DNA of 31,651 nucleotides from a bacterium (lineage in GTDB: Bacteria > Patescibacteriota > 4484-211 > GCA-002791395). How positions within the stretch are numbered: position 1 is the first letter of the stretch; every line of letters begins with the position of its first letter. The stretch spans positions 1-31,651 of the forward strand of contig JALWZS010000001.1 of NCBI GenBank assembly GCA_027002475.1, in the 5' to 3' direction. Below, in pieces: positions 2,234 to 25,730 of this stretch. Under the pieces are notes generated by a model that saw only the letters and a program-made list of their open reading frames with translations, had not been told where the DNA came from and did not search any database. Position numbers and translations under genes: made by a program.

Positions 2234-2315
2234 ATGTTTGTGGCGTCTTATTGCGGGTAAGAATCAAAAGCCATTGGACTGCCACGCTTCGCTCGCAGTG
2301 CCGTGGAATAATAAG

Positions 2316-5948: not shown

Positions 5949-6806
5949 TTAACTATATGACTTTAGAATCTCTTTTAACCCATCTCGTTTAATTGGGATT
6001 TTAACAATTGGTGTTTGTTTTAATTGTGGGAAGTGTGACTCATTAGTTGGTTTTTCTACTTCATAAAATATACCAACAGGAATGTCATTTTCACCAAACT
6101 CCATTGCTTTCATAAATGCTGCTGCCTTATCTGTCCTGTCCCAGTCGTCAGGTAACGGAGTTGTGTTTTGTTGATAAAAAGTGTGAGTACAAACTTTGTG
6201 GAATGTAACGCAGGGTTGTAGTACGTCAATTATTGCGATTCCTTTGTGCTTGTTGGCCTTAATGAGTATCTCTTTTAGGTTTTTAATGTCACCTGAATAA
6301 ACTCTGGCAACAAATGTTGCGCCTGACGCAATTGCAAGCGCTGCTGGTGAAAACGGTTTGTCTGGGTTACCAAACGGTGTTGATTTAGTCGGATATCCTT
6401 GTTGAGTAGTTGGTGATGTTTGACCTGTTGTTAGCGAGTAAAGCTCGTTGTCATGAATAACTACTGTAATGTCATGATTACGCCTGCATGCGTGGATAAA
6501 GTGGTTTCCGCCTTCACCCATACAGCCACCGTCTCCGATGAAAGAAAATACATTAAGTTTATGGTTTGCCATTTTTATGCCTTCTGCAACTGGAAGTGCA
6601 CGACCATGTAATCCTTCAACCGAATTGATTTTTGTAAAGTTAACGATATGACCATTACAGCCAATATCTGCAGTCATTGCGGTGTTGGTATTATCCCAGC
6701 CTTGCTCTACTGCTGCATTTTTAAATGCTGCCCAAATTGTGTAGTTGCCGCATCCTGGACACCAGTTTGGTTGGTGTGGTGTTGCTAAATCAGCTAGCGT
6801 TGTCAT
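5949..6806 (-). CDS. 2-oxoacid:ferredoxin oxidoreductase beta subunit (TPP-binding)
   Basis: N-terminal WCPGCGN plus GDGG motifs. Its start overlaps the stop of the alpha subunit (ATGA). Confidence 0.85.
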   Translation of the reverse strand: MTTLADLATPHQPNWCPGCGNYTIWAAFKNAAVEQGWDNTNTAMTADIGCNGHIVNFTKINSVEGLHGRALPVAEGIKMANHKLNVFSFIGDGGCMGEGGNHFIHACRRNHDITVVIHDNELYSLTTGQTSPTTQQGYPTKSTPFGNPDKPFSPAALAIASGATFVARVYSGDIKNLKEILIKANKHKGIAIIDVLQPCVTFHKVCTHTFYQQNTTPLPDDWDRTDKAAAFMKAMEFGENDIPVGIFYEVEKPTNESHFPQLKQTPIVKIPIKRDGLKEILKSYS

Positions 6807-16236: not shown

Positions 16237-16295
16237 CTTCTAACTTAATTCCGTAAAGCTTTTGCGGTAGTACCGTAGTGGTATCATTCATAAAG

Positions 16296-17189
16296 ATGAA
16301 AAACACGGCAGACGCTAACGTGGTAGAAAATGGCATTGTTGAGGGTATTTCGTTGTTTAAGGCTAATGTAAATGGCATAGATGTTAATTTTGCGAAAGTC
16401 GGACAAGGTCCTGCTATTATTTTAGTTCACGGATTAACAAATAATTGGTTTGGGTGGGGCAGAGTGATAGAGTTTTTAAAGGACGACTTTACTCTTTATA
16501 TTCCAGACTTACTTGGCTACGGACATTCCGGGGATTTTAACGGCGATTACTCGTTGCAGCAACAAGCGCAATTTATCTCAGACTTTATTGATACTCTTGA
16601 AATTAAGCCGGTGGCTGTAATGGGGGTTTCTATGGGCAGTTTGGTTACGGCGGAGGTGGGTAAGTTGATTGGCGATAGATTGAAGTCTGTAATCTTGGTT
16701 AGTCCGCTTCTGCATCCAGCGCGTCATAGTTATTTAAAGGTCTTTTTTTGGCGGCAGCTTAATAAATTAATGTTAAAAAGAGACTTTTTAATGAGAGCTT
16801 ATAAGAGGTTCATAGCAACCCGATTTATGTCTCATTCATTATCTTTTTTCCTTAATATGTGTAGGTATGATTTTAAACTTGTTGAGAAATATGGGTTTGT
16901 TGGAAAACGGCTAATGCGCACTAAAACGTATTTACAGATGAGTCTGTCAGTTAGTTTGTATGACCTTCGTGAGTTCTTGCAGATTTATACTGATAATATC
17001 CTTTTGATTTATGGGAAATGTGATCGTGTAGCTAGACCGCGTCATGCTTACGATATTGTTGCCTCTAAGGCAGATACAATGAATATTGTAGAAATTGACA
17101 GCGCTGGACATTGGGTACAAGTAGAAAAACCTGAAGAGCTATCAAATGCGGTAAAAAAGTATTTAACGGCAATACTTAGTAATGATTAA
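16296..17189 (+). CDS. Alpha/beta-fold hydrolase
   Basis: ILVHGLTNNWFGW and a GVSMGS nucleophile elbow. An alternative GTG start lies at 16278. Confidence 0.7.
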   Translation: MKNTADANVVENGIVEGISLFKANVNGIDVNFAKVGQGPAIILVHGLTNNWFGWGRVIEFLKDDFTLYIPDLLGYGHSGDFNGDYSLQQQAQFISDFIDTLEIKPVAVMGVSMGSLVTAEVGKLIGDRLKSVILVSPLLHPARHSYLKVFFWRQLNKLMLKRDFLMRAYKRFIATRFMSHSLSFFLNMCRYDFKLVEKYGFVGKRLMRTKTYLQMSLSVSLYDLREFLQIYTDNILLIYGKCDRVARPRHAYDIVASKADTMNIVEIDSAGHWVQVEKPEELSNAVKKYLTAILSND

Positions 17190-18075
17190 GAGTAACTGGG
17201 TAAAGATTGTAGCGATTACTACTCTTATTGCGATTGTTCTTGTTGCCATAGTTTCTTTTTATGGATGGTATAAACTGCATGAGCTTTTGCATGTACACAT
17301 TGCTCCAGGAGACAAAACACCAAGCGATTACGGGCTAACTTACGAAGGTTACAGTTTTAAGTCTCTTGATGACATAGATCTTGCAGCTTGGTATGTTCCA
17401 GTAGAAAATCCTAAAGCAGTTATTATTATTGCACATGGCTATAACGATTCTGGGAAAGTTGAGTTTTTACCGTACGCGAGATTCTTACACGATAATGGCT
17501 ATGCTTCTTTTCTTTTAGACCTTCGGGCATTTGGTTATAGCAGTGGCAACCAAGTTAGTATTGGAACTAAAGAGTGGCAAGATGTGGTGGCTGCGTATGA
17601 CTTTGTGCGAGATAACTTAGTTGACTCCAATGTGTCTGTGGGGTTTTTAGGTAAATCGCTAGGTGCTGCAACGGTTGTTATAGCTAATGGATACACGGGT
17701 AAAGGGGACTTTGTGATTGCTGAGGTCCCTTATGCACATTTTGTGGGATTGTTTGAACCACAAATGAAGGAGCGAGGATACTCAGCTGTTCTTATGCCGT
17801 TTTTAAAGATTGCAATGTATTTTGAACTAGGCTTTGGTTACACAAAGTTTGAGCCAATCAAAATGGCAAAGAATATAACGGTGCCGCTTTTGGCAATTAG
17901 TGCGCAGTACGATGAGTCTGTATATCCAACAGATGCAAAGGAAATATACGAGACTGCTAAAGGAGAGAAAGTGTATTGGTTTGCACCATCTGGACATAAC
18001 GTTTACATAGATCTATCAGAAGAGTATAAAAACAAAGTAACAGATTTCCTTGATACGTACGTTGCAAAAGATTGA
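17182..18075 (+). CDS. Alpha/beta-fold hydrolase with an N-terminal TM anchor
   Basis: IIIAHGYNDSG and GKSLGAA. The 8-nt ATGATTAA overlap with the preceding gene places the two in one operon. Confidence 0.7.
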   Translation: MIKSNWVKIVAITTLIAIVLVAIVSFYGWYKLHELLHVHIAPGDKTPSDYGLTYEGYSFKSLDDIDLAAWYVPVENPKAVIIIAHGYNDSGKVEFLPYARFLHDNGYASFLLDLRAFGYSSGNQVSIGTKEWQDVVAAYDFVRDNLVDSNVSVGFLGKSLGAATVVIANGYTGKGDFVIAEVPYAHFVGLFEPQMKERGYSAVLMPFLKIAMYFELGFGYTKFEPIKMAKNITVPLLAISAQYDESVYPTDAKEIYETAKGEKVYWFAPSGHNVYIDLSEEYKNKVTDFLDTYVAKD

Positions 18076-18179: not shown

Positions 18180-19109
18180 ATGTGGCTTGTAGTCATTGTA
18201 ACTCTAGTCCTCCTTGTGGGAGGACTTTTGGGTAGCGCATGGTTTCTTTTGCGTTACCTGATTTACGGGGAGTGGAGAGGAGGCCGCTGGTCTCCCAAAG
18301 ACTTTGGGCTCGATGGGGAATGGATTGAGTTCAAGTCTTTGGATGGTAGCATAATCCACTCCTATCGGGTCTCTCCTGATGAGCCCACTGCCTGGGTTGT
18401 GATAGCCCACGGTTTTAACCCCACCGGCGGCTTTGTGGGTGCGGCTGAATTTTGGCCGTATGCCAAAAAGTTCGTTGGTGCCGGGTACGGGGTTCTGGTC
18501 TTAGACCTACCCGGCTTTGGGCTATCTCCTCGGCGCGCTCGAGGATACCGTCTTGGTTTCCTCGAGTGGTGGGACGCAGTTGCTGCGTATGAGTTCTTGC
18601 GATTTGAGCTTAAGATCGACTTGCCGGTTGGTCTTTTTGCTAAATCGGCTGGAACTCCAGCAGCTATCATTGCCGCTGCCCAAGGATGTGCTGACTTTGT
18701 AGTGTTAGAGTCAGCAATTGCATCCTTTCGGTCGCTCATGGTTGCGCAGTTGCAGTACCATGGGCTACCGCGGATGCTCGCGCTCCCGTTGGCAGCAGTG
18801 TTGGATCTTGTTTGGCGATATGGGTTTAATCACAGCGGGGTGATTGACCCAATAGATGTCGCCCGCGGGATTGGCGTTCCAATCCTCTTCCTTCGGGGTG
18901 GTCAAGATCCTGAGGTCCTGGAAGAGGACACGGTTTTCCTTGCTGAGGAAATTGGGCGCTTGGCAACTGTGAGGTACTTTGCAGCTGCTGGGCACAACAT
19001 CCTCAGACTCAATGGGGAGCCGGCGCACCTCATTAATAAGGAGGAGGCGAAAAAGGCATGGGCGGATACCTTTGCCTTTTTAAGAAACGTAACAACTGGG
19101 AGGCGGTAG
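18180..19109 (+). CDS. Alpha/beta-fold hydrolase, a high-GC paralogue of 17182..18075
   Basis: VVIAHGFNPTGG and AKSAGTPAA are homologous to the neighbouring gene, but GC is about 53-60% and the sequence is rich in Arg, Ala, Gly and Trp. It has a perfect SD (AAGGAGGTGAGAAATG) and a GGGTATAAT -10-like element upstream. Confidence 0.8.
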   Translation: MWLVVIVTLVLLVGGLLGSAWFLLRYLIYGEWRGGRWSPKDFGLDGEWIEFKSLDGSIIHSYRVSPDEPTAWVVIAHGFNPTGGFVGAAEFWPYAKKFVGAGYGVLVLDLPGFGLSPRRARGYRLGFLEWWDAVAAYEFLRFELKIDLPVGLFAKSAGTPAAIIAAAQGCADFVVLESAIASFRSLMVAQLQYHGLPRMLALPLAAVLDLVWRYGFNHSGVIDPIDVARGIGVPILFLRGGQDPEVLEEDTVFLAEEIGRLATVRYFAAAGHNILRLNGEPAHLINKEEAKKAWADTFAFLRNVTTGRR

Positions 19110-19121
19110 CTGCCGCCTCCC
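19098..19121. terminator. GC-rich hairpin shared by convergent genes
   Basis: GGGAGGCGG-tagctg-CCGCCTCCC. It contains the stop codons of both the +strand hydrolase and the -strand rlmD-like gene. Confidence 0.45.
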
Positions 19122-20452
19122 TAGCAAATTCTAGGGATTTCTCTGTTCTTTTTTGTTAGTAAAGTTACTAGTTCTACATGAGGAGTATGTGGAAACATAT
19201 CAATGCCTCGCATCTTTTTTACTTCGTATATTTTCTGTAATGTCTGCATATCACGACTAAAGTTTTTAAAGTTGCAGGAGACATATATAAGGTTATCGGG
19301 TTGAAGAGTTACGAGTTGTGAGAGTGCAGTTTTACGAAGACCTGAGCGAGGTGGGTCAAGAATTACTAAATTTGGATTTAACTCACTCCAATCATAATCT
19401 TCGCTTGGCATAGCAATAAAAGTTGCATTTGTGTTGTTGAGTTTATTGTTTTCTTTCGCATCTTCAATTGCATCTTTAACGATTTCTACTCCAATTGTGT
19501 TGGCGTTAAACTTATCGGCAAGCGGAATGGTGAAAAAGCCGCTGCCGGAATATAGATCGAGGATGGTGATGGGGGTAGTGGGTTGGAGAGTTGTAGTGTT
19601 GGAGTGTTGGGGACTTGGAGAGTTGGAAAGTTGGAGTGTTTCGGGGAGATCGTTTCGTTGATTCTCGCCTCGCGATGACGTGGCTGTATCGGATGGATTT
19701 GTGGATTTGTCATTGCGAGCGAAGCGTGGCAATCTTATTGCCGTTTCGGCGAATTCTAAAACGGTATCCATTAAAAGTTTTGCCGCGTGAGAGTTAGTTT
19801 GAAAAAAAGCGTTGGGCGTTATTTTATATTTGTAACCGTTTATCTCCTCAATAATATAACCCTTTCCCAAGATTATATGAACTTCTCCGCCATGAGAAAC
19901 GTCAGATGTGGTTTTGTTGATTGAGTGGATCAGGGTTGCGAGTATAGAGTTACGGGTTACGAGTTTAGATAAGTTGGATAATGCTTTTGTCAGTTGCTCG
20001 TTTTCGCTATCGTCTTTTGGTTGACTTGTTACGATTGTAATCATTGATTCGCCGGTAGTTGTTGTTCTAATTACTGCGTAGCGAAGCAAGCCATGGTGAT
20101 ATTTTCTATCAAAAAAAGTTAGTCCTGCGTTTTGTGCCCAATCTCTTACGATATGAAAAAGCTCTTCTATTTTTTCATCAGAGATAAAACATGTGTGATT
20201 ATCAATAACTCGCCACCATTTTCCTTTTTGCCGCAATCCTACGCGTCCTTCAAAATCAATAACAAAGTCCATACGGTTTCGGTAGTGACTAGTCTTAGGA
20301 GAGGGGAGTATTTCTTTTAGTTGTAGGTCAAGTTTATGCAATTTAAAGCTAAAGTTTATTTCATTGACCTTCTGCTGGAGTTGCTTTTCGTATGGAATAT
20401 GAGACCAGCTACAAGAGCCGCATACTTCTTTGTTTGGACATAAACTTTGCAT
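19121..20452 (-). CDS. rlmD: RumA/RlmD-family RNA (uracil-5-)-methyltransferase with an internal low-complexity insertion
   Basis: N-terminal Cys cluster CPNKEVCGSCSW, SAM motif ILDLYSGSGFF, and VILDPPRSGL and YVSCNF catalytic motifs. About 60 aa of repeat-derived sequence sit between the central and methyltransferase domains. Confidence 0.75.
   Translation of the reverse strand: MQSLCPNKEVCGSCSWSHIPYEKQLQQKVNEINFSFKLHKLDLQLKEILPSPKTSHYRNRMDFVIDFEGRVGLRQKGKWWRVIDNHTCFISDEKIEELFHIVRDWAQNAGLTFFDRKYHHGLLRYAVIRTTTTGESMITIVTSQPKDDSENEQLTKALSNLSKLVTRNSILATLIHSINKTTSDVSHGGEVHIILGKGYIIEEINGYKYKITPNAFFQTNSHAAKLLMDTVLEFAETAIRLPRFARNDKSTNPSDTATSSRGENQRNDLPETLQLSNSPSPQHSNTTTLQPTTPITILDLYSGSGFFTIPLADKFNANTIGVEIVKDAIEDAKENNKLNNTNATFIAMPSEDYDWSELNPNLVILDPPRSGLRKTALSQLVTLQPDNLIYVSCNFKNFSRDMQTLQKIYEVKKMRGIDMFPHTPHVELVTLLTKKNREIPRIC
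19560..19745. repeat. Intragenic GC-rich repeat insertion in the rlmD-like gene
   Basis: Tandem GTTGGAG-type low-complexity tract (19581-19640) plus the element GTCATTGCGAGCGAAGCGTGGCAATC (19709-19734). The same motif recurs in truB. Confidence 0.6.
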
Positions 20453-24878: not shown

Positions 24879-25730
24879 ATGATTACTGCGCTTTATAAAC
24901 CCTTGGGAATTTCTACGCATTCCTTTGTAAAAAAGTACGGAGATTTATTGGGTCAAAAAGTTACGCATACAGGTTCACTAGATCCCATGGCTGAAGGGAT
25001 TGTAGTAGTGCTTACTGGAGATGACAGGTTTAAAAAGGAATTACTTAGCGATGTTGAGAAAGAGTATGAGTTCGAAATTTTATTAGGCTTCAAAACTGAT
25101 TCATGGGATTTGTTGGGATTAGTTGAAGGGGTTGAGCGTTTAAGAGTTAGAGAGTTGAAGAGTAGGCGAGTTAGAGAGTTGGAGGGTGTGTTGCCTGAGT
25201 TTGTGGGAACGTATGAGCAGGTAATTCCAAAGTTTTCTGCAAAAAGAATAAATGGGGAAAGCTATTTTGATAAAGCTAAAAGAGGGGAGATCTGGGAGCA
25301 AGGGGTGCAAAGTGTTAGTGTCAAAGAGTTGCAAGTTTTAGAGAGTTGGCAGGTTGGCATGTACAGCTTGCAGGAAGAAATTCTTTCTAGGATTAGTAAG
25401 GTCAGAGGAGACTTTAGACAAGAAGAGATTATAAAGAGATGGGGTGACGTCATTGCGAGGAGCAAAGCGACGTGGCAATCTAGCGAAGATGGGAATAATG
25501 TGGATTGCCACGAGAGTTCCGCGCACATCTCTGCCAATGACGTTTGTGTAATTGTGAAACTGCGAGCTGTTACTTCAAAACGATTTTATATTCGGGGATT
25601 GGTACGTGATATTTCTAACAAAACTAATCTTCCGATGACGACTTTTTCTATAAAGCGGATAAGACATGGTGATTACTCAATTGATAATTTAAGTGCAAGT
25701 ACTAATGACAACTTGGGTAAAGAATTGTAA
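24879..25730 (+). CDS. truB: tRNA pseudouridine(55) synthase TruB with a repeat-derived internal insertion
   Basis: HTGSLDPMAEGIVVV contains the catalytic Asp. The insertion includes VIARSKATWQSSEDG... Confidence 0.75.
   Translation: MITALYKPLGISTHSFVKKYGDLLGQKVTHTGSLDPMAEGIVVVLTGDDRFKKELLSDVEKEYEFEILLGFKTDSWDLLGLVEGVERLRVRELKSRRVRELEGVLPEFVGTYEQVIPKFSAKRINGESYFDKAKRGEIWEQGVQSVSVKELQVLESWQVGMYSLQEEILSRISKVRGDFRQEEIIKRWGDVIARSKATWQSSEDGNNVDCHESSAHISANDVCVIVKLRAVTSKRFYIRGLVRDISNKTNLPMTTFSIKRIRHGDYSIDNLSASTNDNLGKEL
25449..25541. repeat. Imperfect palindromic element inside truB
   Basis: Left arm GTCATTGCGAGGAGCAAAGCGACGTGGCAATC and right arm GATTGCCACGAGAGTTCCGCGCACATCTCTGCCAATGAC are inverted at their ends. 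The tandem GAGTTAGAGAGTTG(A/G)AG copies at 25144-25186 belong to the same gene. Confidence 0.6.

Follow-up and report, generated by a model that had tools for sequence, protein, structure and literature searches.

A probable in-frame insertion of REP-type repeat DNA in the rlmD gene of a Patescibacteria genome

The DNA analyzed here, referred to as the window, is a stretch of 31,651 nucleotides from a bacterium of the Patescibacteriota, i.e., the candidate phyla radiation (CPR) (GenBank assembly GCA_027002475.1, contig JALWZS010000001.1, positions 1 to 31,651 of the forward strand). One of its genes, rlmD, encodes a 23S rRNA methyltransferase and contains a segment of 60 codons, 54 more than in its orthologues, which very probably represents repeat DNA of the repetitive extragenic palindrome (REP) type, inserted in frame. 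The features of this locus are as follows.

19121 to 20452, minus strand: rlmD/RumA-type 23S rRNA (uracil-C5) methyltransferase open reading frame (ORF), 443 amino acids (Pfam, NCBIfam, alignment)
19568 to 19747, minus strand: variable segment of rlmD, codons 236 to 295 (alignment A1, 2jjq match, AlphaFold2)
19564 to 19643: octanucleotide tract (GTTGGAGW)n of about 7 to 9 units, repeat family D1, read as ...LQLSNSPSPQHSNTTTLQP...
19648 to 19680, minus strand: REP unit U3, cGTC-ATCGC-GAG-GCGAGAATCAACGAA-(A/G)CGAT-CTC, in the sense orientation of rlmD
19681 to 19707: spacer between U3 and U2, 27 nt between the annotated units (tag base included) and 29 nt between the GTC cores
19708 to 19737, plus strand: REP unit U2, tGTC-ATTGC-GAG-CGAAGC-GTG-GCAAT-CTT, also given as tGTCATTGCGAG-CGAAGCGTG-GCAATC (exact motif)

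The identity of the gene is clear from its protein, in which residues 296–435 match Pfam PF05958 (tRNA_U5-meth_tr) and the NCBIfam model TIGR00479 (rumA) scores 225.8 bits against a cut-off of 183.55. A database search returned thousands of homologues, typically of 370–380 amino acids and named RlmD/RumA from Uhrbacteria, Parcubacteria or Patescibacteria. Alignment A1 comprises 19 sequences, i.e., the window protein and 18 homologues; in it, the window protein has 60 residues (236–295) where about 17 orthologues of 370–412 amino acids have 6, i.e., a net gain of 54 codons (162 nt). The typical orthologue reads EFAGDL-SGKT(L)LDLYCGTGFF across the junction, and the residues of the motifs downstream of the insert are invariant columns (D299, L300, Y301, G303 and G305; D366, P367, P368, R369 and G371; S392 and C393). 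Across 19500–19750 the GC content is 50–52%, compared to 31–42% in 100-nt windows over the rest of the gene. These results bear out the original prediction of an in-frame insertion of about 60 codons of GC-rich, low-complexity sequence in a RumA/RlmD-like gene, with the frame kept and the downstream catalytic motifs intact. The peptide that it quoted is present exactly in the translation of the ORF, and its range of 19560–19745 lies within 8 nt of the boundaries derived here with the orthologue alignment.

The closest relative in A1 (P0002; 93% identical) comes from the syntenic locus of a second genome, GCA_054010915.1 (L001), and carries the insert minus 8 residues. At DNA level this shortfall is a single 24-nt gap, which corresponds to exactly three 8-nt units of the tract. 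The next relative (P0003, locus L002; 68% identical) is without the insert, also at DNA level. At the same junction the L002 orthologue has 8 extra residues of its own (HQPSQPSQ; L002:6690-6730), encoded by a 9-nt direct repeat CAGCCATCT/CAACCATCT, which indicates that the junction loop varies in length independently of the hairpin units.

The position of the insert in the protein was located with two structural approaches. The match to the P. abyssi structure 2jjq (PDB) stops at query residue 236 (chain residue 290) and restarts at query residue 297 (chain residue 294). As the match jumps from chain residue 290 to 294, the insert takes the place of a junction of about three residues right before the first strand of the S-adenosylmethionine (SAM)-binding fold. 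In an AlphaFold2 model built on the alignment, with a mean predicted local distance difference test (pLDDT) value of 84.9 and a predicted template modelling (pTM) score of 0.83, residues 248–291 have pLDDT below 50 and no secondary structure, and are flanked by a helix (221–240) and a strand (296–300). Collectively, these data show that the insert follows the last helix ahead of the Rossmann fold and precedes strand beta-1 (motif I), and the insert is predicted by the model to be a disordered surface loop.

An insert lying exactly between two domains might also be an intron or intein which is excised before the protein becomes functional, or the product of a chimeric assembly, as repeats can mislead assemblers. 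The identical rlmD protein is encoded both on the 79,479-bp ENA/NCBI scaffold and on a Logan contig assembled separately from run SRR14510437, and the second genome, with about 92% nucleotide identity and 86.7% inside the insert, carries the insert as well. The insert is thus present in two assemblies of the organism and in another genome with 13% divergence inside the insert. The Logan contig with the identical rlmD (L123, 1-604) stops inside truB, which fits an assembly break near the repeat DNA of truB and can be counted in favor of a misassembly. A net insertion of 162 nt (a segment of 180 nt) is far below the size of an intron or intein, and the 60 amino acids are of low complexity and without domain match. 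No Rfam family reached its gathering score in the window or in 13 further loci except one tRNA elsewhere, and the region 19400–19900 returned only noise, with nothing relevant, at E values up to 10. The gene's own frame is the only one of the six frames of the insert that is free of stop codons, and the conserved frame together with the 24-nt indel argues that the segment is read by the ribosome rather than being an intervening sequence. A chimera, intron or intein is therefore an explanation to which we give next to no credence. A search with the 58-residue insert peptide against the protein database gave one candidate and none that scored, and is uninformative.

At DNA level, the insert consists of two inverted hairpin units of about 30 nt, U2 and U3, with their tags facing each other, and the adjoining 8-nt tandem tract. 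U2 is antisense to rlmD and is read as RLPRFARND. It contains the 26-mer GTCATTGCGAGCGAAGCGTGGCAATC (19709–19734), for which two matches with at most three mismatches occur in the window compared to 0.00 in 100 shuffles, and this variant was found identically 35 times among the fetched loci. U3 reads cGTCATCGCGAG-GCGAGAATCAACGAA-ACGATC in the window, and its head has one mismatch to GTCATTGCGAG. In the second genome U3 is complete, as a GCGATC tail there provides a compensated outer stem, ATCGC/GCGAT. Tandem Repeats Finder (TRF) reports the tract as an 8-nt array of GTTGGAGT in 7.4 copies at 19582–19640. The tandem GTTGGAG-like tract and the motif described from the sequence alone are thus both found, and the same motif family does recur inside truB 5.7 kb away (GTCATTGCGAG at 25449, i.e., 5740 nt from 19709). 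The description of one motif with a tract holds in so far as the segment is repeat DNA, while its composition is different: the insert has two inverted units, next to a distinct simple repeat, the fast-evolving 8-nt tract.

The second gene with such units is truB, and a further unit is extragenic:

24879 to 25730, plus strand: truB, tRNA pseudouridine-55 synthase, 283 amino acids (Pfam TruB_N, PDB TruB matches)
25104 to 25191: second octanucleotide tract in truB, AGAGTTGG-like (TRF 25121 to 25184), read as ...ERLRVRELKSRRVRELEG...
25448 to 25483, plus strand: REP unit U4 in truB, cGTC-ATTGC-GAG-GAGCAAAGCGAC-GTG-GCAAT-CTA, a variant seen 4 times elsewhere
25500 to 25542, minus strand: REP unit U5 in truB, degenerate, cGTC-ATTGG-CAG-...-GTG-GCAAT-CCA, paired with U4
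2277 to 2303, minus strand: REP unit U1, extragenic, cGGC-ACTGC-GAG-CGAAGC-GTG-GCAGT-CCA, with a compensated outer stem ACTGC/GCAGT

U4 and U5 form an in-frame dimer with the tags outward (25448–25542), with a spacer of about 25 nt and a total length of about 96 nt or 32 codons, which matches the commonest arrangement and the median spacer of the unit family as described below. As DNA, the dimer folds with a z value of -2.28. Orthologues of TruB without the dimer are 243–264 amino acids long, several of them named by their source as candidate division WWE3, and have a variable linker of 10–12 residues at the dimer site; in a comparison with T. maritima TruB, query residues 160–225 span chain residues 152–159. 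The truB tract shares direct-repeat family D1 with the rlmD tract and is only about 4 amino acids longer than in the orthologues, and 258 nt of conserved native coding sequence lie between it and the hairpin dimer. A single composite element consisting of the 8-nt tract and the hairpins was rejected on the basis of this distance and because short tandem repeats are only 1.5-fold enriched near units (0.237 per kb vs 0.157 elsewhere in about 2 Mb of loci, P = 0.045), which is a weak association. The window's only two 8-nt tandem tracts (25104–25191 and 19564–19643) are nevertheless in the two genes with intragenic hairpin dimers, and both have their G-rich strand on the plus strand though rlmD and truB are on opposite strands.

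U1 is located in the 82-nt gap between a hydrogenase small-subunit gene (1712–2233) and the large-subunit gene starting at 2316. The window thereby holds five units, compared to about 1.0 in shuffled sequence. Upstream of the window, 8.3 kb of the scaffold contain another three units (L244:5488-5515, 6359-6393 and 6476-6514), all of them intergenic. One has a fully compensated ATCGC/GCGAT outer stem with a GCC-GAA-GGC inner stem, and two pair up and fill the sufC-sufB spacer, from 5 nt past the sufC stop to 3 nt short of the sufB start. Counted together, about 40 kb of the scaffold carry eight units, four extragenic and four intragenic. A role as intrinsic terminators was tried and rejected, as no terminator-like site was found at the units.

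The general layout of the unit is an unpaired C/TGTC tag, a 5-bp outer stem (ATTGC/GCAAT), a purine-rich 2x3 internal loop with GA on the 5' side and G-N-R on the 3' side, a covarying inner stem, a GNA triloop and usually a CCA tail. The variants share the constant frame ATTGC-GA-G...C-GNR-GCAAT, and the inner stem changes in a compensated way. The inner hairpins include G-GGGC-GAA-GCCC-C, G-GCC-GAA-GGC, G-GTGC-AGC-GCAC-C and A-GCCC-GAA-GGGC-T, and tandem GA/GA mismatches characterize one further class. The loops closed by inner stems such as GGGC/GCCC, GCC/GGC and GTGC/GCAC are all of the GNA type; the inner stem is 2–8 bp long and the loop is mostly a 3-nt GNA.

The hairpin of the unit is real. 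When 60 distinct gap-free 32-nt units were evaluated against a two-helix model with 500 shuffles, 85% of the cells were paired, compared to 77.5% in shuffles and 17–50% with slid partners. Forty cells were changed on both sides of a pair, compared to 5.5 in shuffles, and none of the 500 shuffles reached 40. The covariation score was 0.213 vs 0.079 in shuffles. The first outer-stem pair is A-U in 54 of the 60 rows, and the second is U-A in all except one of them. A crude end-anchored hairpin test on the variable middles gave no enrichment, because fuzzy matches and register shifts swamp the signal. Nearest-neighbor folding of dimers gave z values from -2.3 to -2.8. The commonest cores are GCGAAGC, GCGCAGC and GCGTAGC, and GCGNAGC is described as an extraordinarily stable DNA mini-hairpin (PMC13037366). 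Judged from the sequence, such cores hint that the unit may act as single-stranded DNA, without proving it.

Outside the scaffold, GTDB species genomes from more than 12 phyla contain the pattern GTCATTGCGAGCGAAGCGNNGCAATC, which specifies 24 bases of 26 nt, in at least 120 stretches, compared to about 0.004 expected by chance. The record titles of the carriers include Bradyrhizobium, Sphingomonadales, Rhodospirillales, Rickettsiales, Legionellales, Coxiellaceae and Burkholderiales, as well as Desulfomonilaceae, Nitrospirota, Planctomycetota, Omnitrophota, Acidobacteriota, Chloroflexota (Dehalococcoidia and SAR202), Bacteroidota, Eubacteriales, Calothrix and Saccharibacteria, and the GC content of the loci ranges from 0.29 to 0.69. 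The 18-mer GTCATTGCGAGCGAAGCG was found in at least 120 stretches of IMG/VR viral contigs, often with several copies per contig (L003-L122). If these carriers are real phages, they are a candidate route of spread between phyla; prophage flanks or misclassified bacterial DNA are the alternatives.

Among 286 core matches, GTC is preceded by C in 156 cases, by T in 119 and by A or G in 11, and the three bases 3' of GCAAT are most commonly CCA (124), followed by CTC (63). The window units agree with this, with CGTC tags in U3, U4 and U5, TGTC in U2 and CGGC in U1, and with CCA tails in U1 and U5 and CTT, CTC and CTA in U2, U3 and U4, respectively. An inverted partner is present within 135 nt for 153 of the 286 units, and the units of both window inserts are likewise paired in inverted orientation. 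Only one unit in 47 from loci with GC below 0.52 lies in a frame that is open for at least 70 codons on both sides, and the other 46 lie outside such frames, i.e., the family is normally extragenic.

The spread of the units bears directly on whether the segment could be a native, lineage-specific low-complexity linker that has grown in place and resembles repeats by chance. The site is indeed variable in length among orthologues, as seen from the 9-nt direct repeat and 8 additional residues in L002. However, an exact match of a 26-nt unit in at least 120 unrelated genomic stretches, the absence of matches in the window shuffles, the GC difference from the rest of the gene, and the occurrence of the same family in truB and at three sites between genes on the scaffold all contradict this origin, and we regard it as very improbable. 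For the hairpin units it is ruled out, and it is possible for part of the 8-nt tract only. The condition under which the original prediction would have failed, namely an ancestral linker without similarity to other copies, is thus not what was found: orthologues are without the segment, and its hairpin units match other loci.

The arrangement of the units across loci is informative with regard to how they are propagated. Pairs with the tags outward are the commonest (182, with a median spacer of 25 nt), followed by tandem units (87) and pairs with the tags inward (30). The outward pairs, with spacers of 7–130 nt, resemble a small element bounded by inverted repeats, and the dimers might accordingly be classical miniature inverted-repeat transposable elements (MITEs), i.e., deletion derivatives of a DDE-type insertion sequence (IS) with GTCATTGCGAG/CTCGCAATGAC as terminal inverted repeats, which would move by cut-and-paste. 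Frequent arrangements, however, also include single units, pairs with the tags inward and tandem arrays of a 34–45 nt period, which fits independent units and not a bounded transposon. In addition, no target-site duplication is found at the truB copies or at the rlmD insert, and no parent IS was seen in about 2 Mb of fetched loci, in which no systematic search was made. A MITE origin is therefore improbable. The head-to-tail arrays (L013, L022, L088, L109, L154 and L223) reach six or more copies, e.g., in L223 (5946-6150, reverse strand), and their spacing is too short for CRISPR.

The conservation of the individual parts was compared between two genomes only, the window and L001. Outside the inserts of rlmD and truB, 30 of 178 four-fold degenerate sites differ (16.9%), compared to 4 of 122 positions (3.3%) in the four intragenic units, i.e., about five times less (binomial P = 3e-6, Fisher P = 1.6e-4). 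If the range of U3 is extended to 19648, 5 of 133 unit positions differ. One of the differences is in U2 (1/29) and one in U3. The spacer between U3 and U2 differs at 5 of 27 positions (18.5%), which is near the neutral rate, and the two 8-nt tracts differ at 32 of 141 (22.7%; 13/54 in rlmD and 19/87 in truB). Among differing codons, the ratio of synonymous to non-synonymous is 6:10 in the rlmD insert compared to 55:21 in the flanks. Together with the low divergence of the units, this ratio indicates that the hairpin units are conserved and the peptide is not. The slow evolution of the units can be due to either selection on the nucleic acid or gene conversion among copies.

These differences in rate raise the question of whether the units, although of the same origin, have been exapted and are now kept by selection at nucleic acid level, e.g., as a protein binding site or as a hairpin in mRNA or single-stranded DNA which modulates translation or replication at a domain boundary. 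The spacer and the tracts evolve at about the neutral rate or faster while the units do not, a 26-nt unit is identical across more than 12 phyla and a GC range of 0.29–0.69, and the rlmD and truB inserts are both placed between structural modules. However, gene conversion from other copies could preserve the similarity without any function, the rates come from one pair of genomes, the family is nearly always extragenic elsewhere (1/47 in a long open frame at loci with GC below 0.52), and no partner protein is known. Exaptation therefore appears unlikely, although it deserves more weight than the other alternatives discussed above.

Taken together, we have high confidence in the interpretation that the segment is an in-frame insertion of non-autonomous REP-type repeat DNA in a surface loop of a functional rlmD, similar to the Rickettsia palindromic elements (RPEs). 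Units might spread as hairpins, probably via single-stranded DNA and an enzyme acting in trans. Intragenic copies would then survive only if the frame is kept, no stop codon is introduced and the loop tolerates extra residues, and where the intergenic spacers of a genome are very short, intragenic copies would make up a larger share of the survivors. The insert would be translated as a neutral linker. The octanucleotide tract probably changes length by slippage in multiples of three units, and steps of three 8-nt units keep the frame.

Several points weigh against this interpretation. The divergence of 4/122 in the units vs 30/178 at four-fold sites is not explained by a purely neutral linker. 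To our knowledge, no transposase or other mobilizing enzyme has been assigned to REPs of the CGTC-tagged type, to which the unit is compared below. No mobilizing enzyme was found in the window, and no Y1 transposase or other transposase is among the gene calls of the scaffold regions that were read. The mobility of the unit is accordingly deduced from its distribution, and neither target-site duplication nor empty-site polymorphism within a species was seen. Nearest-neighbor folding of single units was no better than that of shuffles. Furthermore, published CGTC REPs have a continuous stem of 8–9 bp and a loop of 4–5 nt, unlike the 5-bp outer stem, internal loop and inner hairpin of the window unit, and the window unit also differs from the four published CGTC families by the peptides listed below and may be either a variant of CGTC-1 or a candidate fifth family.

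A wider reading is that the ATTGC-GAG-[GNA hairpin]-GNR-GCAAT unit is a pan-bacterial, sequence-conserved single-stranded DNA hairpin kept by selection. This is based on the identity over 24 specified bases from CPR to Bradyrhizobium, cyanobacteria, Chloroflexota, Bacteroidota and viral contigs, on the GCGNAGC core, and on the slow evolution inside ORFs, and we propose it tentatively, as a possibility that we rather doubt. If true, it would imply that the 'orphan' CGTC-type repeats have a widely conserved partner acting in trans, either a mobilizing enzyme or a host factor, and the in-frame CPR copies would be maintained sites and not debris. By which agent the CGTC-type REPs are moved or maintained could become testable by profiling the presence of the unit against the gene content of genomes. 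The unit is thus of wider interest due to its sequence conservation across phyla, its covariation-supported hairpin and its slow evolution inside ORFs.

Other CPR genes also contain sequences of this kind. An rlmD orthologue from another CPR genome (P0101, GCA_964355525.1) has two in-frame palindromic inserts of a different family in two other loops (L245:4493-4530 and L245:4799-4840). Their sequences, CCCTCTCCCGCGACGGGAGAGGG and CCCTCTCCTTTTGAGGGAGAGGG+CGGGGGGAGAGGGG, are read as ...LSRDGRG... and ...PSPFEGEGGGRGV..., and a similar CTCTCCC..GGGAGAGG+GGTGAGGG motif adjoins CGTC-type units in L003, L008, L044 and L073. The presence of a different palindrome family in frame in this rlmD suggests that "insertions" in CPR proteins may often be derived from repeats, which matters for annotation, alignments and structure prediction. 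In the rlmD homologue P0081, the called N-terminal extension holds CHPGPKAGIQ, which resembles the CGTC-1 peptide VIPAKAGIQ (PMC3733652), and this sequence suggests that a different CGTC-type unit just upstream of this CPR gene may have been swallowed by the ORF call.

Adjacent to rlmD in the window, an alpha/beta-hydrolase ORF (18180–19109) has a GC content of 50–58% compared to a background of about 37%, and its upstream paralogues (16278–17189 and 17182–18075) are low in GC. The gene is also present in L001 (11323–12252) and may be a recent horizontal acquisition.

The components of the insert can be compared to several known systems. Short tandemly repeated sequences or coding microsatellites, such as the cyanobacterial heptamer short tandemly repeated repetitive (STRR) sequences, are the closest parallel to the octanucleotide tract, which likewise is a short-period array with a copy number that shifts between close relatives. 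Unlike these, the 8-nt tract is inside ORFs, and the single length change seen corresponds to three units (24 nt). The d(GCGNAGC) mini-hairpin (PMC13037366) fits the unit cores GCGAAGC, GCGCAGC and GCGTAGC, but is a physico-chemical motif and not a genetic element. GTAG REPs and REPINs (REP doublets forming hairpins), which are associated with REP-associated tyrosine transposases (RAYT; TnpA-REP), resemble the window units in being short hairpins with a 5' tetranucleotide, in forming inverted doublets and in occasional frame-keeping insertions (PMC6006769). However, the window tag is C/TGTC and not GT[AG]G, no RAYT gene is beside any copy examined, and REP families are normally specific to a species or genus while the window unit is sequence-identical across phyla. 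In the REP tables of Nunvar et al. (2010), GCGAAGC occurs only inside unrelated GTAG REPs.

RPEs have reportedly been described by Ogata et al. in 2000 and 2002. As in the window, these palindromic repeats lie in frame in the housekeeping genes of a reduced genome and are tolerated as additional surface segments of the proteins; in the window, however, they are hosted by a CPR bacterium. RPE-1 consists of one palindrome of about 100–150 bp, unlike the rlmD insert with its two short units and simple repeat. The NCBIfam RPE domain models did not match either of the two proteins or either of the two insert peptides at E values up to 10. The proposal of an RPE-like in-frame element stands, with the refinement that the family is mostly extragenic elsewhere and is not related in sequence to the RPE domain models that were tried. 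In-frame palindromic repeats in housekeeping genes have been documented mainly in Rickettsia and some Proteobacteria, and the present results extend them to a CPR/Patescibacteria genome with very little intergenic space. The phenomenon is thus already known from Rickettsia and other bacteria, and what is new here is the host group and a sequence type for which we found no description. A literature search for the unit sequences CATTGCGAG and TTGCGAGCGAAGC and the peptides FARNDK, VIASEAKQS and SLLAMT gave only unrelated primer matches, and no paper in the searchable literature ties Patescibacteria to REPs or prints the unit sequence.

The closest known system is the CGTC-tagged REPs defined by Di Nocera, De Gregorio and Rocco (2013, BMC Genomics 14:522; PMC3733652). 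These have a terminal CGTC, TGTC or CCTC, stems starting with A-T, loops of 4–5 nt, a CCA tail, frequent inverted dimers and no associated transposase (PMC3733652). In-frame copies are reported in truB of E. litoralis (amino acids 164–190) and S. alaskensis (amino acids 169–177), in an RsmE gene and in tRNA and rRNA methyltransferase genes of R. conorii, where truB carries RPE-1 (PMC3733652). The published peptides include VIPAKAGIQ, VIPGLDPGIH and VIPVLDTGI, unlike VIASEAWQS, RLPRFARND and DCHASLAMT of the window unit. The published scope is five phyla, none of them CPR (PMC3733652), compared to more than 12 phyla for the window unit, and sequence of the ATTGCGAG type (ATTGC, GCAAT) and the unit peptides are absent from the text and supplements of that study. 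In common with the CGTC REPs, the window unit has the C/TGTC tag, a stem start of A-T and T-A, a short tail that is mostly CCA, and inverted pairs with spacers of 20–100 nt. CGTC REPs are mostly intergenic near gene ends and without a flanking transposase, as the window unit also appears to be in the loci covered, and in both a minority is in frame in ORFs, including truB and rRNA/tRNA methyltransferase genes. Given that R. conorii RPE-6 and RPE-4 are CGTC-1 and CGTC-4, respectively (PMC3733652), and that the unit has the layout of this superfamily, the predicted likeness to RPEs is more than an analogy. On the basis of the shared tag, AT-start stem, tail and dimer habit, we therefore file the unit as a CGTC-type REP.

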